IMG/VR virus record: IMGVR_UViG_3300015607_004160
DNA length: 64,000 bases
Direction: 5' to 3' (one strand)
Origin: a virus
Lineage: Duplodnaviria; Caudoviricetes
This document shows positions 28,094 through 63,171 of this stretch, in pieces. Both the position numbers and the translations under genes were made by a program. Under the pieces are notes generated by a model that saw only the letters and a list, made by a program, of their open reading frames with translations, did no database searches and was not told the origin of the DNA. Each line of letters opens with the position of its first letter. Within the stretch, counting starts at the first letter, position 1.

Positions 28094-28711
28094 ATGATAT
28101 ACATAAAGACATACGAGGAAATAAATAATGGATCTATATTAATTATAGTAGATGTTCAAAAGTCATTCAAAAAATTCTTCACTGATAATTATTTAAAGCA
28201 ATTAAATGAGTATTGTAAAAAATTTGAAACTGTTTATCAAATATTTGATAACCATGTAGAGGGGAAGAATGTAGATACTGATTATCTATATGATAAAAAT
28301 CCAGATAAACCAAATAATAATGACTTATATGTATTTAATAATCAAAAAGATATTATAGAAAAAAGATATAACTATAATGTAGATGCTGACTTTTATAAAA
28401 AAATATTATCACCAGATATATATCAAGATGTTAAAAATAAAGAAAGTAAGGGTTTATTAAGAAGAGGAAATTACTTTTTAACAAATGAAGGAACAATCAT
28501 TGTTTATATCGGAAACAAACATGTTTGGTATCATTGTCCTAAAAAACTCTATGATTTATTTTTAAGACTAAGAAATAAAGAAGTCATAATGGTTGGCGGA
28601 TCTGACCAAGAGTGCTTTTTAGATGTTGAAACAACTGCTAAAGCATTGGGTGTATCAATTAAAAGAAATTTTGATTATATCTATAGTGCAACAAATTGTC
28701 CTATTAAATGA
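28094..28711 (+). CDS. Isochorismatase/nicotinamidase-like cysteine hydrolase, CTS-like N-terminus
   Basis: LIIVDVQKSF, D-x-H, EK, MVGG..QECFLDV; starts MIYIKTYEE. Confidence 0.65.
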   Translation: MIYIKTYEEINNGSILIIVDVQKSFKKFFTDNYLKQLNEYCKKFETVYQIFDNHVEGKNVDTDYLYDKNPDKPNNNDLYVFNNQKDIIEKRYNYNVDADFYKKILSPDIYQDVKNKESKGLLRRGNYFLTNEGTIIVYIGNKHVWYHCPKKLYDLFLRLRNKEVIMVGGSDQECFLDVETTAKALGVSIKRNFDYIYSATNCPIK

Positions 28712-28847
28712 AATATTTAAAATTATTTGAAGCCAAATATTATAAGATTCATGTGAATCAACTACCAAGCTGTCTCCAAAGTTACACAGACCTGTCCAAT
28801 TTGAAGGTGTATTACAATTTTTAAAAGACTATGTGATTTTTAAATAG
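28708..28847 (+). pseudogene. Remnant of a CTS/CDQ-family gene
   Basis: MKYLKLFEAKYYKI (38-aa ORF, 28708-28824); another frame reads VQFEGVLQFLKD, like the CDQ-family C-terminus. Confidence 0.45.
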
Positions 28848-29154
28848 TAAATCCGGTTCTTGACTTATCCAAATTATTCACTAACTCAACTAACACATCA
28901 CCATGACAAGTTTTTGGTTTACACCAACATCCTAGAGTTTTACCTTTTAATTCATGTAAATCATTTAATAGATATTTACCTTCACCATTGGTAATCCATT
29001 CACGATAAGCTTCAATTGCTTCTTTTCTAGTTGGTAAAATATATGTCGCCCTTGTTCCTTCTCTATATGAAAAAGGGCAACCCCATTTTGTTGTTCTATC
29101 AATTAAAACATCGTAGTCTTCTTTTTTGTGGTGAACTACTTTACACTTTTCCAT
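28840..29154 (-). CDS. DUF4326 family protein
   Basis: DVLIDRTTKWGCPF, ELKGKTLGCWCKPKTCHGDVL. Confidence 0.8.
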   Translation of the reverse strand: MEKCKVVHHKKEDYDVLIDRTTKWGCPFSYREGTRATYILPTRKEAIEAYREWITNGEGKYLLNDLHELKGKTLGCWCKPKTCHGDVLVELVNNLDKSRTGFTI

Positions 29155-30620
29155 ATCCATTTTTGCATTCCGCAATCAAAAATTTTATAGTATCCTTGTT
29201 CTGACATTATTTGAATTTCTGTTTTATTTGGGTCAAATCCATCTTTAATTAGTCTATCTTTTCTATAGTTAAATCTATGCTTTCTAATTCCATTAACAAC
29301 ATAATAGTAATTAGGACGAGACGTGTGTGATAATTTAAATCCCAACTTTAAGTACATATCACCATTAGATCTACTCAAATCAGAATAACTTATAATTTCT
29401 TTTGATGGATAGTTATTTAAAAAATATTTAAAAAGTTTAGAAGACCCTCCAACAACACTTGTATTTAACTTATTACAAAATCTTAGTAACTCATATGATC
29501 CATCTTTACTTTTTTGCCCTAATGATTTCCTAAGATTCCCAAATGTCATTAGACTAACCAACTCCTCCTTGAAAAATAATCCGATTTTATACTTTGATCC
29601 AATGAACCCCTGAATGTGATTTTTTGTTAGAAACTCTCTAACTATTTTATTATCAACTACCTCTCTAATATCACATTTTCTAGCAAATATTTTGTTATTA
29701 GTTTTACCAATTTTATTTAATATCATAGACTTCACAATATCTTGTTTATATATCCAATCATCCTCCCATATATGAAATATATTTATACCATTCTTTGCAA
29801 ATAATAGTGTTTTATTTAGATGGTAGTTTTTTTCCTTAAATACTTCAGAATGCCAATATAATCCATTAAATTCAAATCCGATTTTTTTATCAGGTAGATA
29901 AATATCAAGTTCTCTATTTCCAATTTTATAATTAGATATGAAATCTATGCCAGCATCGGATATAATTTTAGAAATGTTTTTTTCCAAATGTGAACTTTTA
30001 AGATTATTTAACTGATTACAATTTATACAAATATCATGTTCATTCTTTATTCTAAGTAAATATGTTGTATAATTTATTTCATATACATTATTACACTTAT
30101 CACATAGTATACTCATTACTCTATTTTCATCTATGCTTATTAGATTTATAGATTTGTTATTATACTCAATAATAGTTTTTTGCTTTTTTGTGTTTGATAT
30201 TTTATCTTTTATGTATGATAATTTTGATATATTATCTATATTATATTTTTCACTTAATGTGTTTTTTATTTTATTTTTGATAGATAACATATCAAATGTA
30301 TATTTGACACCATATTTAGACATCATACTTTTTTCTCTTAATATAGATGTCTTATCAATAAATTCTTGATCCGAATTTTTACATTTATTAGAACAGTAAA
30401 TTGAATATGTGTTATTGAAAAATCCAACCTTATTTTTACAAGCTTTACAAGTTGGTATAGAATCAATATTATGCAAATAGTTATATACCTTTTGCTTAAA
30501 TGGAACTAAATCCTTAGTATAATTTATTATTTGATTATAAAGGTCTGGATATCTTTTTGATATTATATTCTCCCTTCTATTGGCAAAATTTAAAGACTCA
30601 AGTAAAATGTGATAATCCAT
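29136..30620 (-). CDS. Hef-like/PD-(D/E)xK homing endonuclease with C-terminal GNAT-like domain
   Basis: ELDIYLPDKKIGFEFNGLYWHS, HIWEDDW; paralog of 5328..6902. Confidence 0.75.
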   Translation of the reverse strand: MDYHILLESLNFANRRENIISKRYPDLYNQIINYTKDLVPFKQKVYNYLHNIDSIPTCKACKNKVGFFNNTYSIYCSNKCKNSDQEFIDKTSILREKSMMSKYGVKYTFDMLSIKNKIKNTLSEKYNIDNISKLSYIKDKISNTKKQKTIIEYNNKSINLISIDENRVMSILCDKCNNVYEINYTTYLLRIKNEHDICINCNQLNNLKSSHLEKNISKIISDAGIDFISNYKIGNRELDIYLPDKKIGFEFNGLYWHSEVFKEKNYHLNKTLLFAKNGINIFHIWEDDWIYKQDIVKSMILNKIGKTNNKIFARKCDIREVVDNKIVREFLTKNHIQGFIGSKYKIGLFFKEELVSLMTFGNLRKSLGQKSKDGSYELLRFCNKLNTSVVGGSSKLFKYFLNNYPSKEIISYSDLSRSNGDMYLKLGFKLSHTSRPNYYYVVNGIRKHRFNYRKDRLIKDGFDPNKTEIQIMSEQGYYKIFDCGMQKWIWKSVK

Positions 30621-30631
30621 ATCACTATATA

Positions 30632-31557: not shown

Positions 31558-31574
31558 AAATTTATTAATTTAAT

Positions 31575-34728: not shown

Positions 34729-35052
34729 ATGAAAATAAAATTATTTAAGGAGTATATTACTGAAAAGTTGCATACAATAGATGATGCGAATAAAGCATTG
34801 TCTTTATTACAAAAAAATATATCAAAAAATGCATCACTCATTGGTGGATTTGGGAAAGGAAAAGTTACATCCGAACACGATATTGATATATTAATACCAG
34901 ATATAGAATTCAATGATGAAGTAAAAGAACAAATATTCAAGCTATTGAATGCTGAATCTGTTGAAGATACAGATTGGGGAGGATGGTATTTCAATAATAC
35001 CGATTATGGTGATGTTGATATTTTTTACACTGATGAAGACTTTGACTATTGA
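34729..35052 (+). CDS. Minimal Pol-beta-superfamily nucleotidyltransferase, CTS-like N-terminus
   Basis: LIGGFGKG..SEHDIDILI and VDIF; starts MKIKLFKEYITE. Confidence 0.7.
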   Translation: MKIKLFKEYITEKLHTIDDANKALSLLQKNISKNASLIGGFGKGKVTSEHDIDILIPDIEFNDEVKEQIFKLLNAESVEDTDWGGWYFNNTDYGDVDIFYTDEDFDY

Positions 35053-35534
35053 GAATAATTATCCCTTTTATCTAAAAATTTAAAATCATCAGTTGTTAAT
35101 TGAAATCCATCAAAGTTGTTTAAGAAGGCAATAAAGGCTTCTAATGATTCATCCTCAAAGGCAAAAATAGTATTACTTGGATCAAATTTAGAATGATAAG
35201 ATGTATATTGAATAACACTAACTTTATGTGGTGCCTCTATACTAAATTCGGAAACAACCAAATCACCATATGTAATATCAACATTTAATTTTAATTGGTT
35301 ATTTATATTAATCATATAAATATCTATTTCCATTTCATCAGGATCACCATATACAATACTATCTGCTACGTAGTTTATTTGTACTAAATCACCAATACAA
35401 TCGGTATTCTCCCGATGATATTTTCTTATTTCTTTATCTTTAATTATCGTAAGTTCATTTGGAGCTTGATCTTTCCATTTTTCTCCATACATTGTGAACT
35501 GACTAAATCCTTCAAACTTTTTTAGATGTTTCAT
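35046..35534 (-). CDS. Hypothetical protein, CTS-like N-terminus
   Basis: Start reassigned to MKHLKKFEGF at 35534. Confidence 0.7.
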   Translation of the reverse strand: MKHLKKFEGFSQFTMYGEKWKDQAPNELTIIKDKEIRKYHRENTDCIGDLVQINYVADSIVYGDPDEMEIDIYMININNQLKLNVDITYGDLVVSEFSIEAPHKVSVIQYTSYHSKFDPSNTIFAFEDESLEAFIAFLNNFDGFQLTTDDFKFLDKRDNYSQ

Positions 35535-35552: not shown

Positions 35553-35996
35553 ATGAAACATCTAAAATTATTTGAATCTTATTATGAAGACCTAACTCCA
35601 TATGCATATGGTCGTATACATGGTAAAGAATGCCTAAATGTCGGATGGATCGGGAGTGAAGAAAACTTTACGACTGGTGAGGTTTCTGAAGAATTTATTA
35701 AAAAGCTAGAAGCAGTAGAACGTTCAGATGAGTATACTTCAGAAAGACATAAAGGGTTTCACCGGTGCGAATTATGTGGTGTTCTTATGGGATCACAAGT
35801 TAAAAAAATTGAATATAATGGGAAATGTTATAAATTCCCAAGTAAAGTATCACACTATGTACGAGATCATAAGTATAAACCACCTCAAGAATTTATAGAT
35901 GCTATTATGAGCTTAGAAATAAAGGATCCAATTAGTAAGTCATATGGTGGTAGTGGATTTATTGGGGGTAGATATCGTGGATCACGATTTAAATAA
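35553..35996 (+). CDS. Putative Zn-binding protein, CTS-like N-terminus
   Basis: MKHLKLFESY; VGW, GFHRCELC, HYVRDHKYKPPQEFIDA. Confidence 0.7.
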   Translation: MKHLKLFESYYEDLTPYAYGRIHGKECLNVGWIGSEENFTTGEVSEEFIKKLEAVERSDEYTSERHKGFHRCELCGVLMGSQVKKIEYNGKCYKFPSKVSHYVRDHKYKPPQEFIDAIMSLEIKDPISKSYGGSGFIGGRYRGSRFK

Positions 35997-36039: not shown

Positions 36040-37014
36040 ATGAAAGAACTGTTACTAAGCGAAAAATGGAGACCTAAAAAGTTTGAAGATGTTATTCTTC
36101 TACCAAGAATTCAAAAAATATTTGAGGATGGAATTAAGAAAAATGTTATTTTATACGGACATTATGGAACCGGCAAAACAACATTAGCCAGAATACTCAT
36201 TGGTAGATATTCAAAAGATAAAGCTTTCTTAGAAATAAATAGCTCCTTCTATACCTCAATTGATGTTCTAAGGACCAAAATTGATGACTTCTGTTCTAAA
36301 GTTTATATGGGGTTAGACTTAGACTACATGATCGATCAAGATTCTATGAAATATGTTTTCTTAGATGAATTTGAAAGAACATCTCCGCAATATCAAGATG
36401 CTTTAAAGGCATACATAGATGAATATTCTAGTCGAAATGTTCGATTTATATTTAATACAAATCACATTAATAAGATATCTGATGGTATTAAATCAAGATC
36501 AACACAAATTAACTTTGACTGCATTAATGCTGATGAAGAAAAATTTCTTAAAACATCCATCTATAAAAGAATAATGGATGTAATTGCTCCAGAAGAAAAG
36601 ATAGATATTAAAAAGGATGATTTAATAAAAATTATTAATAAAAATTTCCCAGATTTTCGTTCAGTGATGAATGAGCTTCAACATTTTAAAGAAACTGGAG
36701 AAGGATCCTCTAATTCAAATATAAATCTCAAATTGAGAAATGATCTATATGCAATTATTTATGACAAATCTAAAAATTATGAAGATATATATCATTTTTT
36801 AATGAACAACTTTGGTCCAGATAAAATAGATGAAATGATTAGCCTATTTGGAAAACATTTTATTCAATGGTCATTTTCTGAAAAAAGAGAAAACATTGAT
36901 AAATTGTTTCGGGTAAATTATATTATTGCAGAACATACAAAATTATTAGAAACAAATACAGATCCGATTGTATTAGGGATGACGGTTATAGGAAGATTAA
37001 GAGAATTGTTCTAA
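36040..37014 (+). CDS. Sliding clamp loader AAA+ subunit (T4 gp44/RFC-like)
   Basis: EKWRP, GHYGTGKTT, LEINSS, FLDEFE, FPDFR. Confidence 0.9.
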   Translation: MKELLLSEKWRPKKFEDVILLPRIQKIFEDGIKKNVILYGHYGTGKTTLARILIGRYSKDKAFLEINSSFYTSIDVLRTKIDDFCSKVYMGLDLDYMIDQDSMKYVFLDEFERTSPQYQDALKAYIDEYSSRNVRFIFNTNHINKISDGIKSRSTQINFDCINADEEKFLKTSIYKRIMDVIAPEEKIDIKKDDLIKIINKNFPDFRSVMNELQHFKETGEGSSNSNINLKLRNDLYAIIYDKSKNYEDIYHFLMNNFGPDKIDEMISLFGKHFIQWSFSEKRENIDKLFRVNYIIAEHTKLLETNTDPIVLGMTVIGRLRELF

Positions 37015-37437
37015 CTCGTCAAACAACTTAAATAACCCTTCTAATTGGTCACATTTGTATATACCACAAATATCTGCTTCTCGCAAATTGATATATCGCC
37101 ATTTATTCGACCCATTATCATGTAGAGTTCCAAAGTCTAATTGCACATAAAACCATTCATCTGTGGTCATTTTTATTCTACCTGATACAAAATTAGATTC
37201 CTCGTTTTTTCGATTCACAACTATAATCACGTCTACTGGATGTAATAATCTATTAGATAATGGTATATTTACCTTACTAACATTGAATTTTTTCTCTGAT
37301 AATTTTACTTTTATTTTATTAAATATATCGTCGGATATTTCAGTATACTGGTCAGGTGCAATACCTATACTGTCATAATCACTCCCAATTTTTTTATAGT
37401 AATTGGAATATTCCTCAAATAGTTGAATATGATTCAT
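36997..37437 (-). CDS. CTS-bearing DEW..CDQ family protein
   Basis: MNHIQLFEEY; DEWFYV...YKCDQLEGL. Confidence 0.7.
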   Translation of the reverse strand: MNHIQLFEEYSNYYKKIGSDYDSIGIAPDQYTEISDDIFNKIKVKLSEKKFNVSKVNIPLSNRLLHPVDVIIVVNRKNEESNFVSGRIKMTTDEWFYVQLDFGTLHDNGSNKWRYINLREADICGIYKCDQLEGLFKLFDELEQFS

Positions 37438-40875: not shown

Positions 40876-42624
40876 ATGGCTTCATACAACTCACTGAACC
40901 AGTTACAACAACCTACTAATATTGCTTCCTCAGTAGAAAATAAAGGTTTATTTAATAGGTTACTAAGAAATCTTAGTTCATTTGGTATGAAATATGATGA
41001 CATGATCATCCGAAATACGGTGGGGGTTGGTATGAATGAGGATCCATACTCACAGAAAGGAAACTCAATGTATGACTTTTTTAGTCAAAAGGCAGTAGCT
41101 CAAGTTTTAAATAAAAAATCGATTCCGTATTTAGATAGGGCATATTCAGATAAAAGAAGGATTTTAAGGGAGTATTCAATTAAAGATGAAATAAGAGATT
41201 TTATATCAACTGTTGCTGATGAATCAATTGTTTATAATGATGATAGAGACTTTTGCTTTTTAAAGCCATTATCTAATGATTATTCACAAGATGTTAAAGA
41301 TAAATATACTGAATATTTTGAAAAAATTTATAACAAATTTGGATTCTCTGATGGTATAACATCTTGGAATATGATGAAAGATTTTCTAATTGATGGATAT
41401 GTTGCATTAGAAATTGTATGGGATGATAAGAAAAAGAATATTATTCATTTTAATAGAATGAGGCCAGAAACGCTAGTTCCTGCTTATGAGCCATCTATTG
41501 GTAATCTTTGGATTCAATATCCAGAAGACCCACAATTAAGAAGAATATTTTTAGATTCACAAATTGTATTTATATCATATTCTACACAACATGATTATTC
41601 TGAAACATCTTATGTTGAAGGATTAATCAAACCATACAATCAATTAAAGATAATTGAACAAACTAGAATTATGTTCAACGTTATTAATGCCACAGTTTAT
41701 CAAAAATTTACTATACCGATTAAAGGTTTACCTAGACAAAGAGCTGAAGAGCAAGTTGGACAATTAATATCTGATTACTCTGAAGAAGTAGAATGGGATG
41801 ACTCATTAGGAACATTGACTATAAATGGTACAAAACATCTTCCTTATAATAAACAAATATGGTTTCCTGAAGGTGAAGCTGGTACACCAAATATGGAGTT
41901 AGTATCACCAGAAGGTCATAATTTGAATGAGAGTGATATGCTAACTTGGTTTTATAACGCATTAAAAAGAGCCTCTAAAATACCATTCTCAAGATTTGAA
42001 AAAGAAAATGGTGGTGGTAATATCTTTTCAGACGCATCTGAGATGACTAGAGATGAGGTTAAATTTTCAAACTTTATTAATAGAATTAGATCCAATTTTA
42101 AAGAGCTTATTGTTAAATCACTTAGGCTTCAAATGTGTATGGAATTTCCTGAATTAAAAGATGATGAGATATTCCTAAATCAAATTGATATTTCATTTAA
42201 CTCAAATCAAATATTTGAAGAATGGAAAAAATTAGCTAATATGGAAAAAAGATCATCTATACTATCAAGTCTTTTAGGAATTCAAACTGCAGAAGGTCAG
42301 CCTTATTTCCATATCGAATATTTAATTGATAAGGTTATGAAATTAACACCAGAAGAAAAAGAAGAAAATAAAGCCTACTGGATTAAATCTAAAGGAGCTG
42401 GAAGTGCCCAAGGCGGTGAAGGCGGTGGAGAATTTGGTGGCGGTGAAGGAGGTGGAGAATTTGGTGGCGATGAAGGAGGAGAATTTGGTGGAGAGGGCGG
42501 TGGTGAATTTGGTGGACCTCAAGGCGGCGAATTTGGTGGGGAAGGCGGTGGTGAAACTCCTCCAGCACAAGGTGGCGGTGAAACTCCTCCTCCAGCACAA
42601 GGTGGTGGTGAGTTTGAATTCTAA
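40876..42624 (+). CDS. Portal protein (T4 gp20-like)
   Basis: FLIDG, SYVE..IKPYNQLKIIE, GLPRQRAEE, WFP, ASKIPFSRF, TRDEVKFSNFINRIR. Confidence 0.93.
   Translation: MASYNSLNQLQQPTNIASSVENKGLFNRLLRNLSSFGMKYDDMIIRNTVGVGMNEDPYSQKGNSMYDFFSQKAVAQVLNKKSIPYLDRAYSDKRRILREYSIKDEIRDFISTVADESIVYNDDRDFCFLKPLSNDYSQDVKDKYTEYFEKIYNKFGFSDGITSWNMMKDFLIDGYVALEIVWDDKKKNIIHFNRMRPETLVPAYEPSIGNLWIQYPEDPQLRRIFLDSQIVFISYSTQHDYSETSYVEGLIKPYNQLKIIEQTRIMFNVINATVYQKFTIPIKGLPRQRAEEQVGQLISDYSEEVEWDDSLGTLTINGTKHLPYNKQIWFPEGEAGTPNMELVSPEGHNLNESDMLTWFYNALKRASKIPFSRFEKENGGGNIFSDASEMTRDEVKFSNFINRIRSNFKELIVKSLRLQMCMEFPELKDDEIFLNQIDISFNSNQIFEEWKKLANMEKRSSILSSLLGIQTAEGQPYFHIEYLIDKVMKLTPEEKEENKAYWIKSKGAGSAQGGEGGGEFGGGEGGGEFGGDEGGEFGGEGGGEFGGPQGGEFGGEGGGETPPAQGGGETPPPAQGGGEFEF
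42412..42621 (+). repeat. Coding Gly/Glu repeat (GGEF/GGEG) in portal C-terminal tail
   Basis: Locally GC-rich GGTGGAGAATTT-like units. Confidence 0.8.
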
Positions 42625-43254: not shown

Positions 43255-45435
43255 ATGAAACCAGTATTAATTGTTGAAAACAATACAACCCCACTTAGTA
43301 TGAATGAAAACGCTGAAGGCGCTAGTAAGAAAGACTATGTGTTAGGTGGTATATTTACTGAGTTTGGTGTTAAAAACAGAAATGAAAGAATTTACACTGC
43401 AGACAAATTTATTCCATGTTTAGATGAATTAAACGAAAGAATAAATACTATGGGTGTAGTTTATGGTGAATTCGATCATCCTGATGTATTTGATACTTCA
43501 TTATCAAGATCTTCTCACCTTATTCAAAAAGCATTTTATGTTAAGGAGAGCAATAGGGTTGATGGTCAAATTAGATTATTAAATACTTATTGGGGTAAAG
43601 AAGCAAAAGCATTAGTAGATGATGGTTGTCCAATGTTCGTTTCATCAAGAGCTGCTGGTATTACAGAAGCTAATGGAACAGTTACATTGAAGAAGTTATT
43701 CACTTACGACATTGTAGCTGACCCAGGTTTTGCTTCTGCTAGATTGACATCAGTAAATGAGTCATTTGGTTACACAGACAACGCTAACTTTAGGATATAT
43801 GAAATGTCCGACGAGTCAAAAATTAACGAACTATTCAACATGAACAAAAATGAATTCGTTACCAAAGATCAATTGACAGATTATTCTAAGTATATAATCA
43901 ATGAGATTGCATCTACTAAAAAGGAAGTTAAATCTGCCTTAAAAACTGGTAACTTAAATCCGAAAAAATTAGAGCAACTTTTAGAGTACTACGAAGAGTT
44001 AAACAAAACTAACGAGCAAGTTGTTAAGTATTTAGATTACTTAGCAGAAAAAGTTCAAGTTGTAGTTAATGAAAACAAATCATTAAAATCAACTACTGAA
44101 AAATTAGTAAGTCACAATGACTACTTAGCTGAAAATTTAGAAAAAGCTATTAATTATTCTGAATACTTAGCTGAAAGCTTAGATAAGAACATTACTTACT
44201 CTGAATACTTAGCTGAAAATATCGACAAAAACATTACTTATTCTGAATATTTAGCTGAAAATATCGACAAAAACATTACTTATTCTGAATATTTAGCTGA
44301 GAATCTTGATAAGAATATTGCTTATTCTGAATATATCGCTGAAAACTTGGATAAGAACATTGCATACTCTGAGTATATCGCTGAAAATCTTGATAAGAAT
44401 ATTTCTTATTCTGAATATTTAGCTGAACACTTAGATAACTCAATTGCTTATTCTGAATATTTAGCAGAGCATGTAGAAGGAAATATCGCATATTCCGAAT
44501 ACATTGCAGAACATTTAGATGATAACATTGCTTATTCTGAATATATCGCTGAAAACTTAGACAAAACTGTAACTTATGCAGGCATGATTTCTGAGAAATT
44601 AAACGGTGGTAAAGTATTCGAAAATAGTGGTGAATCATTCCCAACACTTAACGAAGCAGGATTTGAATTGCTTCCTGAAGAAGAAGAAGAAGACGAATAT
44701 GATGAAGAATTTCCTTTGGATGATGAATATACTTCCGAAGTAGGATTACCTGGTGAAGAAGAATTTGTTGAAGAAGAAGGATTACCTAGTTCTGAATTAC
44801 CTGGTGAAGAAGTTTTACCTGGTCAATTAGATAATCAGGAAGATTGTGATGAATGTGGTAATGAAGAAGTTGGTGAAGAAGAAAGAGTATTTGGTGAAAA
44901 TACTGAATATAATGGAGAATCAGATAGCGACCTATCTTTACAAATAGACAAACTAATCGAAGAAGCTAAAAAACGTAAAGTTTCTGAGTCAAACGATTTA
45001 AATTTCTTAAAATTCTTAAACAAGTCTCAAGTTGATAGTTATTATGAACTTTCTAACGATGAGCAAGAACAAGTTAAACTTTACATAAACGAAAAGAGTT
45101 ATTACTCAAGTTCTGATGTTTTAAAATTAATCTCTGAAGCACTTTCAGTTAAGAATGAATCAATTGAAGAAAAATTAGTCAGATTGATGCCTGAAAACAT
45201 TAAGCCAATCTGGAGTCAGCTAAATGAAGCATCTAGAAAATCTATCTTATCTCAAGCTAGATTATACCCAGAATTAAATACTGAATCAAAAGTAGAACAT
45301 TTCTGGTTAACTAGAAATCTCAAGAAAAATGAATCTGTAACTAAGAAGTTAGTCGCTCACGAAAGCCTAATACAAGAAGATAGACTTTCAGACAGTGAAG
45401 TTAACGCAATTATGGAAAGATTCAGAAGCATTTAA
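43255..45435 (+). CDS. Prohead protease (gp21-like) fused to a scaffold/core-like domain
   Basis: KNRNERIY, YGEFDHP, VSSRAAG, TYDIVADPGF; then coiled coil, 14-aa repeats and an acidic region; precedes the capsid gene. Confidence 0.9.
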   Translation: MKPVLIVENNTTPLSMNENAEGASKKDYVLGGIFTEFGVKNRNERIYTADKFIPCLDELNERINTMGVVYGEFDHPDVFDTSLSRSSHLIQKAFYVKESNRVDGQIRLLNTYWGKEAKALVDDGCPMFVSSRAAGITEANGTVTLKKLFTYDIVADPGFASARLTSVNESFGYTDNANFRIYEMSDESKINELFNMNKNEFVTKDQLTDYSKYIINEIASTKKEVKSALKTGNLNPKKLEQLLEYYEELNKTNEQVVKYLDYLAEKVQVVVNENKSLKSTTEKLVSHNDYLAENLEKAINYSEYLAESLDKNITYSEYLAENIDKNITYSEYLAENIDKNITYSEYLAENLDKNIAYSEYIAENLDKNIAYSEYIAENLDKNISYSEYLAEHLDNSIAYSEYLAEHVEGNIAYSEYIAEHLDDNIAYSEYIAENLDKTVTYAGMISEKLNGGKVFENSGESFPTLNEAGFELLPEEEEEDEYDEEFPLDDEYTSEVGLPGEEEFVEEEGLPSSELPGEEVLPGQLDNQEDCDECGNEEVGEEERVFGENTEYNGESDSDLSLQIDKLIEEAKKRKVSESNDLNFLKFLNKSQVDSYYELSNDEQEQVKLYINEKSYYSSSDVLKLISEALSVKNESIEEKLVRLMPENIKPIWSQLNEASRKSILSQARLYPELNTESKVEHFWLTRNLKKNESVTKKLVAHESLIQEDRLSDSEVNAIMERFRSI
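44113..44574 (+). repeat. 42-bp coding tandem repeat (YSEY[LI]AEx[LIV]DxN[IV]x), 10 units plus 1 degenerate unit
   Basis: Units run 44155-44574 with a degenerate unit at 44113-44154. Confidence 0.9.
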
Positions 45436-45498: not shown

Positions 45499-47184
45499 AT
45501 GTCACACATTAGAATAGACAAACAAAAAGCTTTCAAGAAATGGGCTCCTGTATTGGAGAACATGGGTGTTGTTAGCGAAGAAAAATTAGACTGGTTATCA
45601 GAATATGCTGAGTACCACTCTATCAATGAAAATGCATACCTTAACGCAGGTATCGCAGGTATGGGTTCAATAACCGCTCCTCAGCCTTCAACTTGGGCAG
45701 GTAGTACTATCGGTACTAACTGGTCTAGCCATGGTGGTCAAGTCGGTTCTGGTGATTTAGGTCAAAACCTTTTACCAGTAGCTATGAAAATTGCAGCTCA
45801 AACAATTGGTCTTGACCTTGTTGCTGTAAAACCTACTCCTGGTCCAAAAATCGACTTACTTTACATCGACTTCCAGTATGATGATAGTAATCTTGATAAC
45901 AATGAAAGACCTCAGGTTTTCAAAGTTAACGTTACTAGCACTAGTGAAGCTGCTGCTGTTGTTGCAGGTTTAACTGCTGCTTTAGTAAGTGCTTCAATCA
46001 CTCAAACTCAGGGTGGTTTAGCTGGTGGTAGATTATTCCAGAACATCAACACTGGTTCAACATCAACAACTGACCCAGCAACTAGTGGTGTTTCTAAACA
46101 ATATTGGACAGAATTCTTAGGATTCTCTCGTATTGATGGTTACCCAATGTTTAAGGCTTACAGACAAGCTAACGCTTTCGGTGCTGTAACTCCTAGCAGT
46201 GTAACTGGTCCTGCTCCTTGGGCATTTGACCAAACTAAAAACACTTTCAACCCAACTGCCTCTATGGTGGCTCAAATCACTTTACTTGGTGGTACTGCAG
46301 TTTCTGCATGTACAGTTGAATTAGTGTCTGCTCTTGAAGATCACATTCCTGGATTCGTATCTAACTGGACTAACGGTGGTACTTATCCAATGTCTCGTCA
46401 AGATGATGATAACAGCTACGCTGGTGTTATCGGACCTAAAGTTTCTTCTAAATCTATCGCAGTTGGTACTATTGAAGTATCTTCAGCTCTTAGAAGAAGT
46501 GAAATTGAAGATATCAAAGCTAACACTGGTATGGACATCGTTCAAAAGATGGAGTCTATCCTTGTTAATGAGTTATCTCAAACAATTTCTAAGCAAATCA
46601 TTGCTAAAATCTTCGAATTAGGTGCATTAAACAGAACATCTGCTCCTACGAGAGGTGGTAGTCCTTTATTTGACTTAGACACATCTTATGTTGGTACTTC
46701 TGGCCCAGGTGGTGAAACTACACACGCTGTACAAAGAAAACTTATCACTAAGTTAGTACACGCTTCTAACTTCATCGCAACTGAAGGTCGTGTTGGTCCT
46801 GCACAATTTGCAGTTACTAACGGAGGTCTTGCAGCAGCTTTCATGGATGTAGCTGGTTACACAATTAACCCTGCTAAATCTAAGATCAATGGTTCAGGTC
46901 AATTATACCCTGTAGGTCAAATCGGTGATATCACTGTTTATGTTGATCCTTACATGAAGTATAACGACAACAGAATCGTTCTTGGTAGAAAGAACAACCC
47001 TGATCAACCTGGTGTTATCTTTGTTCCATACTTAATGGCACAATCTATCAGCATCATTTCTGAAGCTACATTCGCTCCTAGAATGTTATTACGTTCAAGA
47101 TATGCAGTAGCTGAAGTTGGTTGGTTCCCACAAAAACAGTATATGCAACTTAACGTTACAGACGCTGGTGGATTCCTTAACTAA
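45499..47184 (+). CDS. Major capsid protein (T4 gp23-like)
   Basis: KKWAPVLE, IGLDLVAVKP, LVNELSQTISKQI, VYVDPY, GVIFVPY, TFAPRMLLRSRYA; strongly biased codon use. Confidence 0.95.
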   Translation: MSHIRIDKQKAFKKWAPVLENMGVVSEEKLDWLSEYAEYHSINENAYLNAGIAGMGSITAPQPSTWAGSTIGTNWSSHGGQVGSGDLGQNLLPVAMKIAAQTIGLDLVAVKPTPGPKIDLLYIDFQYDDSNLDNNERPQVFKVNVTSTSEAAAVVAGLTAALVSASITQTQGGLAGGRLFQNINTGSTSTTDPATSGVSKQYWTEFLGFSRIDGYPMFKAYRQANAFGAVTPSSVTGPAPWAFDQTKNTFNPTASMVAQITLLGGTAVSACTVELVSALEDHIPGFVSNWTNGGTYPMSRQDDDNSYAGVIGPKVSSKSIAVGTIEVSSALRRSEIEDIKANTGMDIVQKMESILVNELSQTISKQIIAKIFELGALNRTSAPTRGGSPLFDLDTSYVGTSGPGGETTHAVQRKLITKLVHASNFIATEGRVGPAQFAVTNGGLAAAFMDVAGYTINPAKSKINGSGQLYPVGQIGDITVYVDPYMKYNDNRIVLGRKNNPDQPGVIFVPYLMAQSISIISEATFAPRMLLRSRYAVAEVGWFPQKQYMQLNVTDAGGFLN

Positions 47185-54760: not shown

Positions 54761-55447
54761 ATGAAAAACAACTACACACACGTTGCTATTTTAATTGACA
54801 GATCTGGTTCAATGAATAGTATCAAATCTGATGTTATTGGTGGTTTTAACCAACTAATTGAGGATCAAAAAAATGTACCAGGTGATTTAACTGTTACTTT
54901 AGTTCAATTTGATGAGAATATGGGATTACAATTTGAAACAATTAATGATTTTTCCCCACTTAATGAGGTTAAGTTATTAAACGAATCTAACTATACCCCA
55001 AGAGGATCTACTCCCCTAAATGATTCATTAGCTAGGTTAATCAATGAGACAGGTGCTAGATTAGCAGCAAAAGATGAATCCGAAAGGCCAGAAAAAGTTC
55101 TTATTGTGTCTATTACTGATGGGCGTGAAAATGCTTCAAAAGAGCATACAAAACAAAGCGTTAAAACACTTATTGAACATCAAGAAAAGAATTACAATTG
55201 GAAGTTTATGTATATTGGTGCCAACCAAGATTCATTTGCAGAAGGATCATCTAGGGGTATCGGAGCTTCTTATAACTTTGCAGCAGATTCAAAAGGAACT
55301 AAGAAAATGAGTAAAGTATTCAGCGCTACATTAGCGTCTTATAGAAGTGCTGGTGTTTCTGCAAAAGAGTGTGATTTATCTCAAGTATTAGCTGAAGAGG
55401 CTAAAAAAGCTGACTTAGAAGAAGCAGCTGAAGATTCTAAAAAATAA
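54761..55447 (+). CDS. von Willebrand factor A domain protein
   Basis: MIDAS DRSGSM, GSTPLND, ITDGREN, WKFMYIGAN. Confidence 0.88.
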   Translation: MKNNYTHVAILIDRSGSMNSIKSDVIGGFNQLIEDQKNVPGDLTVTLVQFDENMGLQFETINDFSPLNEVKLLNESNYTPRGSTPLNDSLARLINETGARLAAKDESERPEKVLIVSITDGRENASKEHTKQSVKTLIEHQEKNYNWKFMYIGANQDSFAEGSSRGIGASYNFAADSKGTKKMSKVFSATLASYRSAGVSAKECDLSQVLAEEAKKADLEEAAEDSKK

Positions 55448-59501: not shown

Positions 59502-59837
59502 ATGAATAAAATCAAAAAGTACGACGAATTATCCTCAGATATTGAGAATAAAGACTTAGATCCAGAAATACAAAAACTTAAAGGTGAGTATCAAATCGAA
59601 GAAATCTTAGATATATTTACCGACCCGAAAGATATACCTGTTACTGAAGGTGCTATTGGCATAAATACGGATTTATCAGTCAAAGAGGTTAAAAGAGGTG
59701 ATTATATTTGGATAACAGCTTTACTTAGAAAGCAAGGGCATAGCTTTACATCACCTGCCGTACAAGGTGTTATTAAATTAAGAGTTGTTGATATATTCTA
59801 TGGATTGCAATACCTAAATAAAGTTATAAATAAATGA
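59502..59837 (+). CDS. Hypothetical protein, CTS-like N-terminus
   Basis: MNKIKKYDEL; TTAATATATA at 59488-59497. Confidence 0.65.
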   Translation: MNKIKKYDELSSDIENKDLDPEIQKLKGEYQIEEILDIFTDPKDIPVTEGAIGINTDLSVKEVKRGDYIWITALLRKQGHSFTSPAVQGVIKLRVVDIFYGLQYLNKVINK

Positions 59838-60865
59838 AATATTTAAAAATATTTGAAAAATTTAATACATTTTATTATAAGCTAACGCAGAATGAGTTTG
59901 ATGAAATGATACAGAGTCCTGATATATACACATTTACTCAACGTGATATGTCAGTAATATCTGATTTTGCAAAAAGAAAAAAATATATCTATCAAACTAA
60001 TAGTGTTGATATAATAAAGTTTGACTCCAGAGAATGGTCATTATCTGATGATTGGGACTTAGATAAGTGGATATCATCATCCGAAATTAGAATACACGAA
60101 GAAAACAATATTACAACATATAAAGCTAATCAAGATATTTCTAAGGGAACTCATTACTGTGGGACAATAGGACAAAAGGAAGAATATCTTAAAGTAGAAA
60201 ACTTCACAATTAGACTTAAAAAGTATATGATTAAATATCCAAATAGTAGATTTGGGGGATCGTTACCACTACCACAAAAGCATATGCTAAACATAGATAT
60301 AATGAAATGTAGTGATGAGTGGTTTTTAGTTGTATTTGACAATAATATTATGTATAAATGTGATCAATTAGATGGGCTAATAGAATTCATGTCGAATATA
60401 AATACATTGGAAGCATTTAGAGATGAATACCATTCTCTATATGATATAGAAAAAAATAGAGAGGAATATTGGAATGGATATCTTAAGAAATTAAAAGCTG
60501 ATCAGGATGAACTACAAAAAGAGATGGAAGAGGATCCACACTATTTTACAATGATTAGCCAGGATGAGGTAGATGAACTTTATGATAACTTGGTCAGCTT
60601 CAAAGATGATGAGATTGAAAAAATAAAAGAATTATTTAGCGATAAATATTTAGTATATAAAAAGACATGGAAAAAATATGACTCTGATAATACCGAAATC
60701 TTTATAGAGGCAATTAGACCAAATTGCATAATTAGAATTTGGAAATTAGAAGATGAATGGTATATAGTTTCAACAAGTGATGCAAACGATAGAGGAAGAG
60801 TGAATGATAAATGTGATCAATTTGATGGACTAAAGAGATTATTAAATAAAATATTAATAAAATGA
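59834..60865 (+). CDS. CTS-bearing protein with two DEW..CDQ domains
   Basis: MKYLKIFEKF; DEWFLV..YKCDQLDGL and DEWYIV..KCDQFDGL. Confidence 0.7.
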   Translation: MKYLKIFEKFNTFYYKLTQNEFDEMIQSPDIYTFTQRDMSVISDFAKRKKYIYQTNSVDIIKFDSREWSLSDDWDLDKWISSSEIRIHEENNITTYKANQDISKGTHYCGTIGQKEEYLKVENFTIRLKKYMIKYPNSRFGGSLPLPQKHMLNIDIMKCSDEWFLVVFDNNIMYKCDQLDGLIEFMSNINTLEAFRDEYHSLYDIEKNREEYWNGYLKKLKADQDELQKEMEEDPHYFTMISQDEVDELYDNLVSFKDDEIEKIKELFSDKYLVYKKTWKKYDSDNTEIFIEAIRPNCIIRIWKLEDEWYIVSTSDANDRGRVNDKCDQFDGLKRLLNKILIK

Positions 60866-62760
60866 TACGTATTAAATTATTTGAAGAATTAAATAAAAGT
60901 AAGCCTAAGGTAATTATTTTTCAAGGATCGCCAAGGGATAAAGATACTTGTCCAAATATGGACAGTAAAACACATACAATAGTTGAATACATCATTGAAA
61001 AATATTCTGATGTATATGATTTTGATATAATTGATTTATCAGTAAACCAGTCTAAAAAGTCAATCATACAACCATGTAAAGGATGTGTATCAACTGCTGG
61101 GGGATATCATTGTATTGCAAAAGGTGAAAGAGTAGAAACAAAGTATGGATTTAAGAAAATTGAAGATATTCAAATTGGAGATGAACTATCTACTGGAGTA
61201 GTTGAAAATGCTTGGATGTCAGGAAAAGACTCTGATGTATTTGAAGTGATAGTTTCGGATGGTAGAAAAATAAAACTTACCGACAATCACCCAATAAAAA
61301 TAATAAATCCAATATATAAAAATGGTAATAAGAGAAAATTAATTGGATATGAAGAAAAGTGGAAAAATGTAAAAGATATCAAAATTGGTGATAGACTTCC
61401 ATTTAATTTTAATGAAAATTTTATTAACGATGATAATAACATTAATGTTTATCATATTGCTGGTATGATATGGGGAGATGGATCATATAAGAGTGGAAAA
61501 TTAAGATTGTGTTATGATATAAGAGATGAAAAACTTTTTAATTTTATATCATCTAATTTTGAAATTTCAGTTTCACAAGGTCCAATATCAAAAAATACTA
61601 CTACCAACTGGATATCTTTTAAAGATAGAAATATAAACATCTCGCTAAACACTTTAATTAAATCAGAAAAGATTAAAAATATTCACAGTAGAAGAATACC
61701 AGATATAATAATGAATTCTTCTAAAATACAAATATCTAAATTTTTAAATGGATGGTTTGCTACTGATGGATCTGTTATATTAAGAAATAATAATGGAAAT
61801 AAATATTATGAGATAAATTTAACAAGTGTTAGTAAAGATTCTCTAAGAGATTGTCAAATGTTATTATCAAAGTTTGGAATAAAATCATCAATATCATATC
61901 TAGATCATATAGAAACTTTTAGATTTAATAAATTTATTAAAAGGTCTTCTATGTTGATTATAAGCGGTAAAAATGCCAATATATTCATGCGAGAAATCGG
62001 TATAATTAACAAAGACTACAAATTTGAATATATTAAATATAGAAATTCTAAAAAGCATACATCCTTCGGAAAAATTGAAAGCATAGAAAGCATTGAAACA
62101 TCGGATGTCTATGATATATCTGTTAGTGATTCTCACAAATTTATATGTGAAGGTATTGAGGTACATAATTGTCATTGGTACTGCACATGTTATAAAAAGA
62201 ATGATGAAAAAAAGCCAGACTTTATGTATGACGGAGACATATATACCAAGCTTGAAAAGTGTGATGCTTTTTTAGTATTTAGTCCAATACATTGGTACTC
62301 TGTTAGTAGTCAAGTAAAAGCTTTATTTGATAGATTAGTTTGTGCTAGTCAAACATTACACTATGATGACGCTATTAAAGTATTGGGAAAAGGAAATTTG
62401 AAAAATTCAGAAATAACCGGTAAATTTGCACAATCCGGTGAATATAACGATTTGTTAAAGAATCACTTAGAGGGTAAAGTAGCAGGATTTTATGTACATG
62501 GTGATGATGGAGCAAACGATTATGATGATAAAGAATTGCCAGAATCATTTAAAGACGAAAAATTCACACCTAAGCAAGCAATAACGCCGATAGTAAATCA
62601 ATGTAGATACTCTGGTATAAACGTCCCTAATGACCTTATAGAGGCATTCTATATAAATAAAGATAAGGATTATTATACAGCAAATTTAGATTTAGAAAAT
62701 CTATCAAAACCATTTGATAATGCTGATAGATTATTAAAAAATTTAAAGAAATACATATGA
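60862..62760 (+). CDS. Flavodoxin-fold (iron-sulfur flavoprotein/FMN reductase-like) protein with intein, CTS-like N-terminus
   Basis: FQGSPR, PCKGC..CHW.C.C, SPIHWYSVSSQVKALFDRL, GKVAG. Confidence 0.85.
   Translation: MIRIKLFEELNKSKPKVIIFQGSPRDKDTCPNMDSKTHTIVEYIIEKYSDVYDFDIIDLSVNQSKKSIIQPCKGCVSTAGGYHCIAKGERVETKYGFKKIEDIQIGDELSTGVVENAWMSGKDSDVFEVIVSDGRKIKLTDNHPIKIINPIYKNGNKRKLIGYEEKWKNVKDIKIGDRLPFNFNENFINDDNNINVYHIAGMIWGDGSYKSGKLRLCYDIRDEKLFNFISSNFEISVSQGPISKNTTTNWISFKDRNINISLNTLIKSEKIKNIHSRRIPDIIMNSSKIQISKFLNGWFATDGSVILRNNNGNKYYEINLTSVSKDSLRDCQMLLSKFGIKSSISYLDHIETFRFNKFIKRSSMLIISGKNANIFMREIGIINKDYKFEYIKYRNSKKHTSFGKIESIESIETSDVYDISVSDSHKFICEGIEVHNCHWYCTCYKKNDEKKPDFMYDGDIYTKLEKCDAFLVFSPIHWYSVSSQVKALFDRLVCASQTLHYDDAIKVLGKGNLKNSEITGKFAQSGEYNDLLKNHLEGKVAGFYVHGDDGANDYDDKELPESFKDEKFTPKQAITPIVNQCRYSGINVPNDLIEAFYINKDKDYYTANLDLENLSKPFDNADRLLKNLKKYI
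61111..62169 (+). mobile_element. Intein with LAGLIDADG homing endonuclease (353 aa)
   Basis: Starts CIAKGERV, block B LTDNHP, IAGMIWGDGS and FLNGWFATDGS, ends VYDISV..VHN followed by Cys. Confidence 0.92.
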
Positions 62761-62784
62761 AATATTTAAAAAGAATACAAGATA

Positions 62785-63171
62785 ATGAAATATTTAAAAA
62801 CATTTGAATCAAAAAAATCAGGTCCTAATTTCAAAAAAATTATAATTGATGATTTTGTTATATATCAAGGAAAAGATGCTGAGGCAAATGATTATGTTAC
62901 ATTAGAAGTAGCAAATGATAATGATATGTGGTTTCATGCAAAAGGTGTTCCCGGTAGTCACGTCGTAATGAAAATAAAAGACAAACTACCAACACAAGAG
63001 ACAATTAAAAAGGTGGCTTTAATAGCTGCTAAGAATTGTAAATCAAAAGATAATAGTATTAAAGTACTTTATTGTAAGAAAAAATTCGTTAAAAAAGAAA
63101 AAGGAATGAATCCCGGACAAGTTAAAGTAGATTATAATAACGCTGATGAAATAATCATTGAAAAAAAATAA
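62785..63171 (+). CDS. Stand-alone NFACT-R RNA-binding domain protein (RqcH C-terminal-like), CTS-like N-terminus
   Basis: GKDAEANDYVT, DMWFHAKGVPGSHVV, VKK..GMNPGQV; starts MKYLKTFES. Confidence 0.85.
   Translation: MKYLKTFESKKSGPNFKKIIIDDFVIYQGKDAEANDYVTLEVANDNDMWFHAKGVPGSHVVMKIKDKLPTQETIKKVALIAAKNCKSKDNSIKVLYCKKKFVKKEKGMNPGQVKVDYNNADEIIIEKK

Follow-up and report, generated by a model that had tools for sequence, protein, structure and literature searches.

Why should proteins as different as an isochorismatase-like hydrolase, a flavoprotein and a stand-alone NFACT-R domain begin with the same few residues in a single phage, and what might these residues do? The question is raised by a window of 64,000 nucleotides (the whole stretch of DNA analysed here) from an uncultured, huge, T4-like phage of the Mahaphage clade with AT-rich DNA. 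The window has 77 per cent nucleotide identity to LR745206/LR756502, and all relatives of the phage are uncultured metagenomic phages. Features are collected in Table 1, and ORFs are named by their first position.

The shared tag is 8–12 residues long and stands at the start of about 21 of the 78 ORFs in the window, far above chance, as M-K-[YH]-[LI]-K-x-[FY]-E or as a variant with a one-residue indel. An ungapped PSSM made from eight seeds and applied to 422 Met positions scored above 21 at thirteen ORF starts; the remaining positions scored below 11, bar one internal site (nt 3468, 19.6). All six starts named in the original prediction do carry the tag. Four of them score highly (29.2 for 35553, 25.9 for 62785, 22.7 for 60862 and 21.6 for 28094), and ORFs 97 (MKIRNFSEFITE) and 34729 (MKIKLFKEYITE) have a dialect that is one residue shorter. 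The proteins behind the tag are unrelated, with no BLASTP match between any two tagged window proteins once the first twelve residues were masked. Leu/Ile at tag position 4 is encoded by seven different codons, so the constraint acts on the protein; throughout the tag, synonymous codons vary freely and the residues are kept. A Glu is retained at position 8 or 9 (over 90 per cent in one alignment column), and three residues ahead of Glu8 there is mostly K, T or R, with F/Y there in the Y-N-E form. When tag ends were checked against the T4 gp21 motif, (L/I)-x-E, the rule was not obeyed; the tags of ORFs 97 and 34729 (the ITE dialect) alone fit, so any cleavage site is a guess. We also looked for a bias towards basic cargo and found none (median pI 6.8 in tagged versus 6.4 in untagged proteins, Mann-Whitney p = 0.96).

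Table 1. Tagged ORFs, head genes and associated features of the window.
Feature	Position	Strand	Basis or remark
Tagged 307-aa protein, HExxH (aa 91–95) and DEFEAKYH	97..1020	+	Motifs invariant in 7 orthologs
Three tagged ORFs, no assigned function	1347-2207; 2204-2842; 2874-3686	-; -; +	
Largest tagged protein, 1032 aa, MKYLKYHQEY	15613..18711	-	Adjoins tail sheath gene; no known domain
ClpS	24501-24782		PF02617 7e-17
Two tagged ORFs, starts 26832 and 27649	26832..28083	+	Directly 5' of isochorismatase-like gene
Tagged 205-aa protein, isochorismatase/nicotinamidase-like fold	28094..28711	+	AF2 fold comparison
Tagged 107-aa protein, G-G-x9-D-x-D motif of Pol-beta-type nucleotidyltransferases	34729..35052	+	Motif
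Tagged 162-aa acidic protein, MKHLKKFEGFS	35046..35534	-	Divergent from 35553; shared AT-palindromic promoter-like element
Tagged DUF7919 protein, predicted Zn site	35553..35996	+	DUF7919 2e-28; tag MKHLKLFE directly before family's native N-terminus
Tagged ORFs, no assigned function	36997-37437; 37455-38021; 39687-40112	-; -; +	
T4 gp20-type portal protein, untagged	40876..42624	+	PF07230 2e-60; behind late-type promoter motif
Head maturation protease (N-terminal part) with long C-terminal extension	43255..45435	+	phrog_207 5e-30, residues 2-400
T4 gp23-type major capsid protein, untagged	45499..47184	+	PF07068 2e-27
Tagged 343-aa protein, no assigned fold	59834..60865	+	End overlaps next gene's start (ATGA)
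Tagged FMN_red/flavodoxin-like flavoprotein, Cys-rich loop, intein-split	60862..62760	+	PF03358
Intein with LAGLIDADG homing endonuclease	61111..62169	+	PF14890 8e-12, PF14528 6e-15
Tagged stand-alone NFACT-R protein, 128 aa	62785..63171	+	PF05670 4e-13

Comparison with cell-type relatives places the tag outside the domains that it precedes. About 125 of the 150 best DUF7919 representatives begin M-x-Y-F-x-D-L-T-P-Y, aligning to residues 9/10 onward of the phage protein, and copies in bacterial genomes (Kitasatospora, Taibaiella, Lachnospiraceae and cyanobacteria) have the same start. The bacterial genes have a stop codon a few codons upstream of this start, which falls exactly at the end of the phage tag; cleavage behind Glu8 would therefore restore the native N-terminus minus its Met. 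If the tag does load heads, DUF7919 would provide an example of effector recruitment, with the tag joined precisely to the own start of a bacterial-type domain. The other boundaries agree: NFACT-R lies within RqcH at residues 459-551, the FMN_red profile begins at residue 13 of an intein-less ortholog of the flavoprotein, and solved nicotinamidase chains begin at residue 12–13 of the 28094 AF2 model. These results support the gain of the tag by cell-type domains, as originally claimed. The check proposed for it, a search for the same N-terminus on cellular homologs, did not refute it, the bacterial DUF7919 genes starting where the tag ends. The tag is thus a protein-level feature added onto otherwise complete domains.

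The domain assignments themselves held to differing degrees, those of the nucleotidyltransferase and the peptidase being the two weak ones among the six. For the 28094 protein, predicted to be a cysteine hydrolase of the isochorismatase/nicotinamidase type, no sequence match was found in Pfam, NCBIfam or the PDB (the last by single sequence and profile; the PF00857 family was unmatched). Its AF2 model (pLDDT 85, residues 1-12 disordered) was compared with 48,161 chains, and the top 28 all belonged to the isochorismatase/nicotinamidase superfamily (Z 7.3–8.9 over 118–139 aligned residues), the next score being 5.9; Foldseek on the same model was weak (E 0.05). There are more than 1000 homologs, each of about 205 aa, and the tag is present on 107 of 120 among the matches listed; an ortholog in a 735-kb phage (31 per cent identity) has a dialect tag. 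D20, K90 and C174 are invariant in twenty-two sequences. In the model, D20 is at the end of strand 1 and C174 at the start of the helix after a strand, and the three residues are candidates for an Asp-Lys-Cys triad placed as in the family. The fold was therefore predicted well, while a match at the sequence level is missing and nicotinamidase specifics are conjectural. For the minimal nucleotidyltransferase at 34729, we sought the Pol-beta-type motif G-[GS]-x9-13-D-x-[DE], which is present, and the call rests on it. The profile match to NTP_transf_2 (PF01909) is sub-threshold (E 0.0034, 18.2 bits, cut-off 21), the GGFGKGKVTSEHDIDILI stretch aligns weakly to the TdT catalytic motif (E 0.3), Atlas placed the protein at 0.88 to NTP_transf_2 clusters, and no homolog was found in the phage collection.

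The protein called Zn-binding (35553) is firmly DUF7919, and H70, C72, H101 and H106 are invariant, with C75 nearly so; from these residues, Zn binding is plausible. The predicted HExxH peptidase (97) is tagged and keeps its motif, and the peptidase call comes from that motif. Profile searches gave no family match, a fold search with the AF2 model (a sheet, then a helix at 86-101; poor, at pLDDT 56) returned no zincin among its matches, and Atlas offered weak leads to M76/SprT/M78 (TM <0.5); the protein is a possible zincin. The NFACT-R assignment (62785) was confirmed outright. The protein scores 50.3 bits against PF05670 (curated cut-off 29.8), and residues 24-117 align to Bacillus subtilis RqcH 459-551 (E 1e-15) and also to a solo NFACT-R protein, CCDC25 (E 5e-4). 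In contrast to RqcH/NEMF, it lacks NFACT-N, HhH and the coiled-coil and bears the phage tag instead; as these parts are required for Ala-tailing, it cannot itself be a ribosome-rescue factor.

The supposed Fe-S flavoprotein (60862) is an FMN_red flavoprotein (39.4 bits against PF03358, curated cut-off 24), and the intein with its LAGLIDADG endonuclease had been overlooked. The intein comprises aa 84-436 and is inserted at a Cys in the Cys-rich loop, with C84 at its start and the junction HN436/C437 at its end. The intein-less ortholog (L025:2264-3109), which scores 41.9 bits over residues 13-137, reads through the same extein junction. Isf-type iron-sulfur flavoproteins have a compact C-x2-C-x2-C-x4-7-C cluster motif. 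The spliced loop here reads C-x2-C-x8-C-x3-C-x-C, the protein had no match to solved Isf structures, and Fe-S binding is no more than possible. Since the gene upstream (59834) overlaps 60862 at ATGA, it would share one late-type operon with the genes for the flavoprotein and the NFACT-R protein.

When would these genes be expressed? A promoter-like motif of the TAATATATA type lies within 40 nt upstream of 16 of the 21 tagged genes versus 19 of the 57 untagged genes (p = 9e-4) and occurs in 2 per cent of random 40-mers; the portal and sheath genes are also preceded by it. The motif ends 5–15 nt before the ATG, and untagged genes have the same promoter and spacing, so the late transcripts of this phage would carry very short leaders. 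Late-type promoters before tagged genes also fit any other late function. The window includes a T4-type prohead module with a gp20 portal, a gp23-type capsid protein, TerL and, between the portal and capsid genes, a maturation protease whose Peptidase_S77 match (the T4 protease family in Pfam) is below cut-off at 9e-5. Neither these core structural proteins and TerL nor ThyA, the clamp loader, Fpg, ClpS and the glycosyltransferases carry the tag.

The tag is also widespread in the complete relative LR756502.1, where 102 of 917 ORFs have it versus one of 2703 internal Met controls. Tagged proteins there include SET, GNAT, HNH, Toprim and a second lysozyme; the latter has a 110-aa N-terminal extension and coexists with an untagged endolysin, a pair that recalls T4 gpe and the virion lysozyme. 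Tagged genes are dispersed through the window and through 640 kb of the relative, and no particular enzyme regularly adjoins them. Only five of the twenty-one tagged window proteins have a homolog in LR756502.1 versus thirty-eight of the fifty-seven untagged ones (p = 9e-4), and the tagged repertoire, judged from such sequence comparison, turns over fast.

We favour, at a probability of roughly 0.55, the reading that the tag is this lineage's capsid-targeting sequence (CTS) in a greatly expanded T4-type system, because the tag is highly non-random on unrelated bodies, and because housekeeping enzymes and core structural proteins lack it. Tagged proteins would be produced late in infection along with head and tail proteins and docked by the tag onto the prohead scaffolding core. 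The 43255 protease, a candidate enzyme for tag removal, would then clip the tag, probably past the conserved Glu 8 or 9. The protein bodies would be kept in the filled head and delivered with the DNA into the next host, where they could act ahead of any phage gene transcription. The lineage would reuse this portable tag on a large and quickly changing set of proteins, including stand-alone domains of cellular type, such as the diverged cysteine hydrolase with its isochorismatase-like fold, the FMN-dependent reductase, the NFACT-R binder of RNA or ribosomes, the metal-binding DUF7919 and the minimal nucleotidyltransferase. We infer docking, cleavage, capsid retention, ejection and every host target. 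Action at injection, part of the original prediction, is drawn from the likeness to the T4 CTS, the late-type promoters and the T4-type head module, and the suggested anti-defence roles and targets (NAD, nucleotide signalling, redox state and stalled ribosomes) are guesses.

In T4, the CTS (MKTYQEFIAE) is cut once and is enough to load foreign proteins (PMC8442874; PMC5694885), and it is removed by the prohead protease gp21 (Mullaney and Black 1996; PMC8442874, PMC5694885, PMC3012670). There too, a short N-terminal M-K-x-aromatic...F...E is common to unrelated proteins (IPI, IPII, IPIII and the Alt propeptide), and the likeness is closer in the dialects MKIRNFSEFITE and MKTFNQFINE (P0260). Both systems combine a gp20/gp23-type head and a maturation protease with late genes (here, late-type promoters), a variable repertoire and a portable tag. 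T-even phages have hyperplastic internal-protein loci (PMC3012670), and the match of our homolog counts to this pattern supports head loading. However, T4 has its tag on only a few proteins, small and basic ones, whereas here there are about 21 per 64 kb, and about a ninth of the relative's ORFs, without a charge bias; the bodies include cell-type enzyme domains, the gp21 rule is not followed, and packaging and cleavage are proposals here.

Other giant phages offer a looser parallel, although we found no published account of similar tags in jumbo phages. The accounts of phiKZ, 201phi2-1 and SPN3US describe ejection (inner-body) proteins processed by a T4-related prohead protease (PMC5694885, PMC7411985). 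These phages too are giants. Their heads contain many non-structural proteins, enzymes among them (the virion RNA polymerase), and the proteins are cut behind Glu and leave with the DNA, as is proposed for the window phage. Unlike it, they have propeptides mostly of more than 100 residues, no single short tag, an (S/A/G)-x-E motif, and another lineage and head-gene set. Against head loading, more than 100 cargo species would be about twice the roughly fifty head proteins reported for SPN3US (PMC7411985), and flavin or metal enzymes would need to come through the tail intact. Enzymes packaged in heads are an established theme (Alt, MuF fusions and polyvalent proteins; PMC9503650), above all in myoviruses (Iyer, Burroughs, Anantharaman, and Aravind 2022, PMC9503650). 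Examples are T4 Alt, polyvalent proteins, and ART, Macro or Nudix domains fused to MuF or portal proteins, all loaded into the head and used at entry against host defence and physiology, the same idea as is proposed here. These examples are, however, covalently fused to structural domains or are giant multi-domain proteins, whereas ours are separate small proteins with a short detachable tag and belong to other families (isochorismatase-like, FMN_red, NFACT-R, DUF7919, SET and GNAT).

The departure from the T4 cutting rule, the sheer size of the tagged set and the lack of a T4-like charge bias could also mean that the tag addresses late proteins to a reader or site other than the head, such as an assembly factory or compartment, a phage chaperone, or the tail or baseplate. 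The enzymes would then work in the producing cell late in infection and not in the next host, and an FMN reductase or a Toprim domain is not obviously useful at entry. We consider this unlikely, though it is the rival that deserves most attention: the closest precedent with the same head module is a capsid targeting sequence, enzymes that act late in the cytoplasm are untagged, as are core structural proteins, the lysozyme pair fits virion delivery, and no candidate alternative reader was found.

It is considerably less probable that the tag is a removable pro-peptide or degron, which would keep late proteins inactive or time their destruction (by a protease or the phage ClpS) with no role in targeting. 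The phage does encode ClpS, the tag is disordered in the 28094 model, and its Y3, L4 and F7 would be N-degrons once exposed. Under the N-end rule, however, a Met-Lys start as made is no ClpS substrate, and the tag begins in just this way; no enzyme is apparent whose processing would uncover Y, L or F, and quick repertoire turnover and the T4-like sequence fit cargo better. We give least credence to a leader for a modifying enzyme or an mRNA or translation-start feature of late transcripts. Very short leaders would suit the latter, but untagged genes share the promoter and spacing, and it is the residues, not the codons, that are conserved; against a modification leader, the tagged genes are scattered and have no constant enzyme neighbour.

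Returning to head loading, we suggest tentatively, and at less than even odds, that Mahaphage-type huge phages carry cargo on the scale of a proteome. About one-ninth of their genes (over 100 proteins) would be tagged, with domains recruited by an eight-residue graft into a fast-evolving enzyme arsenal that disarms or reprogrammes the host before transcription. Such an arsenal would comprise a cysteine hydrolase, a flavin reductase, an NFACT-R binder, SET/GNAT modifiers, HNH nucleases and a lysozyme. Ideas such as NAD salvage to counter NAD-depleting defences, or interference with ribosome rescue, become testable, and a loading tag that is short, portable and suited to very large capsids is a possible protein-delivery tool, as the T4 CTS already is. 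Should the tag indeed direct head loading, sequence alone would reveal the proteome that uncultured giant phages inject, and candidate first-minute effectors could be listed, the majority of unassigned fold.

Among the N-termini of all ORFs in the window, the start M-K-[YH]-[LI]-K-x-[FY]-E-x-[FY] recurs; we call it the tag. We iterated a position matrix from eight seeds over all 422 Met positions that are followed by 50 or more residues. The matrix gave 13 matches (scores 21.6–29.2), all of which coincide with or lie close to an ORF's first Met, with the background below 11 except for a single internal site at nt 3468. One-residue-indel variants, or dialects, begin about eight more ORFs, e.g. 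MKIRNFSEFITE (ORF 97; ORFs are named by their start), MKIKLFKEYITE (34729), and MKYLKRVFEN (38021). The tag is real. With the first 12 residues masked, BLASTP among the tagged proteins found zero matches to one another, which rules out paralogy as the origin of the common N-terminus. The sole paralogs inside the window are untagged, dispersed homing-endonuclease-like ORFs, one of which sits between the portal and protease genes. Also untagged are thymidylate synthase, an Fpg-type glycosylase, the clamp loader, ClpS, glycosyltransferases, the terminase, and the core structural proteins. The tag is therefore specific to one class of proteins and is no general mark of late or abundant ones.

A promoter-like TAATATATA-type motif lies within 40 nt upstream of 16 of the 21 tagged genes versus 19 of the 57 untagged ones (p = 9e-4), with a rate of 2% in random 40-mers. 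The portal and sheath genes also have it. ORF 60862 has no motif of its own, and its start codon shares bases with the stop codon of tagged gene 59834 (ATGA); in the operon 59502-59834-60862-62785, the motif precedes the first gene. The starts of four divergent pairs, 35534(-)/35553(+), 2842(-)/2874(+), 59450(-)/59502(+), and 39655(-)/39687(+), are 18–50 nt apart. Each pair has one common AT-palindromic TAATATATA-type element ending 5–15 nt before each ATG, and none of these starts has a Shine-Dalgarno sequence. The element is apparently a two-way late promoter.

Tag-like peptides also occur inside proteins. The site at nt 3468 (+) encodes MILKRKFESYL, 222 residues into tagged ORF 2874-3686. 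In LR756502.1, a complete relative, the NFACT-R ortholog (229253-229942) continues in-frame behind an N-terminal part of ~100 aa; where the two meet lies KIIKFDKFNEG, a tag remnant that lacks the Met. Such internal peptides may be polyprotein joints or cases of start-codon loss. P0245, an ortholog of the HExxH protein at 97-1020, has an extra module of ~100 residues between its first tag (MRIKTFKVFES) and the start of the conserved body (...ESLGID...), which suggests modular shuffling directly behind the tag.

The window has a G+C content of 25–34%, and its virion and replication genes are T4-type (see table). Between the portal and capsid genes is a 726-aa ORF whose residues 1-400 match PHROG 207 ‘head maturation protease’ (5e-30); the T4 prohead protease family gives a weak Pfam match below the cut-off (9e-5). 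At the DNA level, the head genes share 77% identity with LR745206.1 (634 kb) and LR756502.1 (642 kb). Al-Shayeb et al. 2020 give 634, 636, 642, and 735 kb as the sizes of their largest curated genomes and place those >634 kb in the Mahaphage clade, for which Bacteroidetes are the predicted hosts (PMC7162821). Our searches for relatives found no cultured one. The phage-encoded ClpS deserves mention as part of a genome with so many proteins sharing an N-terminal peptide.

Features of the window and of the complete relative LR756502.1, with coordinates, strand, and supporting match where available
Feature	Location	Strand	Match or remark
gp20-type portal	40876-42624		PF07230 2e-60
726-aa ORF, protease	43255-45435	+	
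gp23-type major capsid protein	45499-47184		
T4-type large terminase	22343-24499		
Sheath-like protein, 1257 aa	window		
gp15-type sheath stabiliser	window		
gp44-type clamp loader	window		
ClpS, N-end-rule adaptor of ClpAP	24501-24782	-	PF02617 7e-17
HAD domain, ‘Swiss Army Knife’ RNA-repair type	25015-25590	-	untagged accessory
M28-like peptidase	52732-53874	-	untagged accessory
VWA-domain protein	54761-55447	+	untagged accessory
Homing-endonuclease-like ORF	3681-4385	-	untagged
Homing-endonuclease-like ORF	5328-6902	+	untagged
Homing-endonuclease-like ORF	29136-30620	-	untagged
Homing-endonuclease-like ORF	42625-43026	-	untagged
Homing-endonuclease-like ORF	49984-50970	+	untagged
SET-domain protein	LR756502.1 208299-208742		tagged; adjoins isochorismatase-like ortholog
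Stand-alone Toprim piece, 189 aa	LR756502.1 385200-385769		tagged; ‘primase’ match
Second lysozyme, 253 aa	LR756502.1 489926-490687		tagged; 110-residue N-terminal extension
Endolysin, 153 aa	LR756502.1 153839-154300		untagged

We rebuilt LR756502.1 from 13 pieces and, with a minimum length of 60 aa, called 917 ORFs. The tag begins 102 of these, many in tandem runs, at a threshold that just one internal Met in 2703 reaches. Pfam domains were found in only about nine of the 101 tagged proteins scanned: GNAT acetyltransferase (two), HNH nuclease (two), DUF6576 (two), SET, lysozyme, and Toprim (one each). The untagged endolysin and the tagged lysozyme recall the soluble and virion lysozymes of T4. 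Homologs in this genome exist for just 5 of the window's 21 tagged proteins, versus 38 of its 57 untagged ones (p = 9e-4); the conserved five include the isochorismatase-like and NFACT-R proteins.

The original prediction held that the tag had been added to cellular-type domains for action at injection, and ORF 35553 gives a direct view of such an addition. Predicted to be a Zn-binding protein, it belongs to DUF7919 (2e-28). Across 36 diverse members H70, C72, H101, and H106 never vary, and C75 hardly does; a metal site is likely. For its role, a PDB profile search returned nothing usable, a cluster look-up no names, and the surroundings of one untagged member were phage-like and uninformative. 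A full HMMER search with the 35553 protein against 1.84 billion representatives gave 2215 matches. Among the best 150, about 125 start M-x-Y-[FY]-x-D-L-[TS]-P-Y, their own residue 2 aligning with phage residue 9 or 10, while nine have a strong tag and about eight have dialects (e.g. MKTFNQFINE-TYYADLTPF). Copies from bacterial assemblies, including large isolate contigs (Kitasatospora, Taibaiella soli) and MAGs (Lachnospiraceae, cyanobacteria, Planctomycetota, and others), begin at the domain, and only a few codons separate their start from a preceding in-frame stop. MKHLKLFE has therefore been grafted directly onto the native start, so that a cut after Glu8 would restore the natural des-Met N-terminus.

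Solved nicotinamidases align with the model of ORF 28094 from residue 12-13 onward, the FMN_red profile sets in at residue 13 of an intein-less ortholog of 60862, right behind MKVKKLQEYNTK, and in RqcH the NFACT-R domain is internal, in the C-terminal part. The N-terminus of the phage proteins is thus not that of their cellular counterparts (the DUF7919 copies, RqcH, the FMN_red profile, and the nicotinamidases), in line with the prediction. Among phage orthologs, a tag score >15 is reached by 107 of 120 in the 28094 family and by 77 of 120 for NFACT-R, most others being dialects.

How well each enzyme name holds varies. For 28094, predicted to be of the isochorismatase/nicotinamidase type, the fold agrees but a sequence match is absent: Pfam, NCBIfam, PHROGs, and the PDB (by phmmer/hmmsearch) gave no family. 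The family comprises >1000 metagenomic proteins of ~205 aa, some from contigs of 620–770 kb; the ortholog in the 735-kb phage LR756501.1 is 31% identical and starts MKVIKFSDYLKE. An AF2 model from 22 members (pLDDT 85, residues 1-12 disordered) was searched against 48,161 chains. The best 28 were all isochorismatase/nicotinamidase-type cysteine hydrolases (Z 7.3–8.9, alignments of 118–139 residues), after which the scores fell to Z 5.9; this search is the sole link to isochorismatases. D20 (end of strand 1), K90 (strand 84-92), and C174 (start of helix 174-184) are invariant and are candidates for the Asp-Lys-Cys triad, which isochorismatases have at these places. On the model, we call it a diverged isochorismatase-like hydrolase, with nicotinamidase one possibility of several.

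ORF 60862, the predicted Fe-S flavoprotein, is FMN_red/flavodoxin-like, but neither extein nor the intein-less ortholog matched a solved iron-sulfur flavoprotein (Isf). Its aa 84-436 are an intein that contains a LAGLIDADG endonuclease. LR756501.1 encodes the intein-free 281-aa ortholog (L025:2264-3109), continuous across the junction (...GG-A/Y-H|C-H...), which places the intein at nt 61111-62169 (+) within 60862-62760. The insertion point is a Cys of a Cys-rich loop that reads C-x2-C-x8-C-x3-C-x-C after splicing.

The stand-alone NFACT-R domain of 62785 was confirmed: PF05670 scores 50 bits against a cut-off of 29.8, and residues 24-117 align to B. subtilis RqcH 459-551 (1e-15) and to CCDC25 (5e-4). 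The ‘minimal nucleotidyltransferase’ at 34729 has the signature G-G-x9-D-x-D, which aligns weakly to the TdT active site (E 0.3), but its NTP_transf_2 match is sub-threshold (E 0.0034); it is a probable nucleotidyltransferase. In the presumed peptidase at 97, HExxH and DEFEAKYH are invariant across seven orthologs, but no family matched. Its AF2 model from the seven orthologs is poor (pLDDT 56), and a wide fold search with it returned helical noise (Z 6 or less) and no zincin; Atlas leads (M76, SprT, M78) had TM <0.5. Calling it a peptidase is a guess at the level of the motif.

By analogy, the tag is most likely a capsid targeting sequence (CTS) of the T4 type. The T4 CTS, MKTYQEFIAE, is the target of one cut by the prohead protease and suffices for packaging foreign proteins in the head (PMC8442874, PMC5694885), and the T-even internal proteins that carry it are a diverse, fast-changing anti-defence set with only the CTS in common (PMC3012670). 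The tag is of the same build (Met-Lys, hydrophobic/aromatic residues, then Phe/Tyr-Glu), and the window phage has the same head module. Packaging, clipping, and ejection of the tagged proteins are proposed on this likeness. The tag keeps Glu 8/9 but, unlike the T4 sequence, does not follow the (L/I)-x-E rule: the residue three before Glu is usually K, T, or R, or F/Y where the tag reads Y-N-E. The rule holds for the ITE dialect alone, and the window protease would therefore need another specificity. T4 internal proteins are basic, whereas the tagged proteins show no such charge bias. The putative cargo, at least 100 species, is also about twice the ~50 different head proteins reported for SPN3US (PMC7411985), though a rough volume argument would allow tens of copies per species.

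Less probably, the tag is an address read elsewhere or directing late proteins to a different destination, a pro-peptide or degron (the phage has its own ClpS), or a leader that a modifying enzyme recognises. A feature of the mRNA is unlikely: Leu/Ile at tag position 4 uses seven different codons and Lys both AAA and AAG, and the constraint is therefore on the peptide.

As for possible roles, nicotinamide or another amide could be the substrate of the isochorismatase-like hydrolase, and the flavin reductase could act on redox state or quinones. The solo NFACT-R of 62785 lacks the parts that RqcH needs for Ala-tailing; this phage protein could only bind the same RNA/ribosome surface, or DNA as CCDC25 does, perhaps in competition with host rescue. 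The T4 CTS is already known, as are head-packaged enzymes such as Alt, MuF fusions, and polyvalent proteins (PMC9503650). A literature search for the tag string gave no match, and we found no published case of a single short tag that heads ~11% of the proteins of a giant phage and has been joined to stand-alone domains of cellular type. What is added here is the enzyme content of the tagged set and a direct test of the grafting of the tag.
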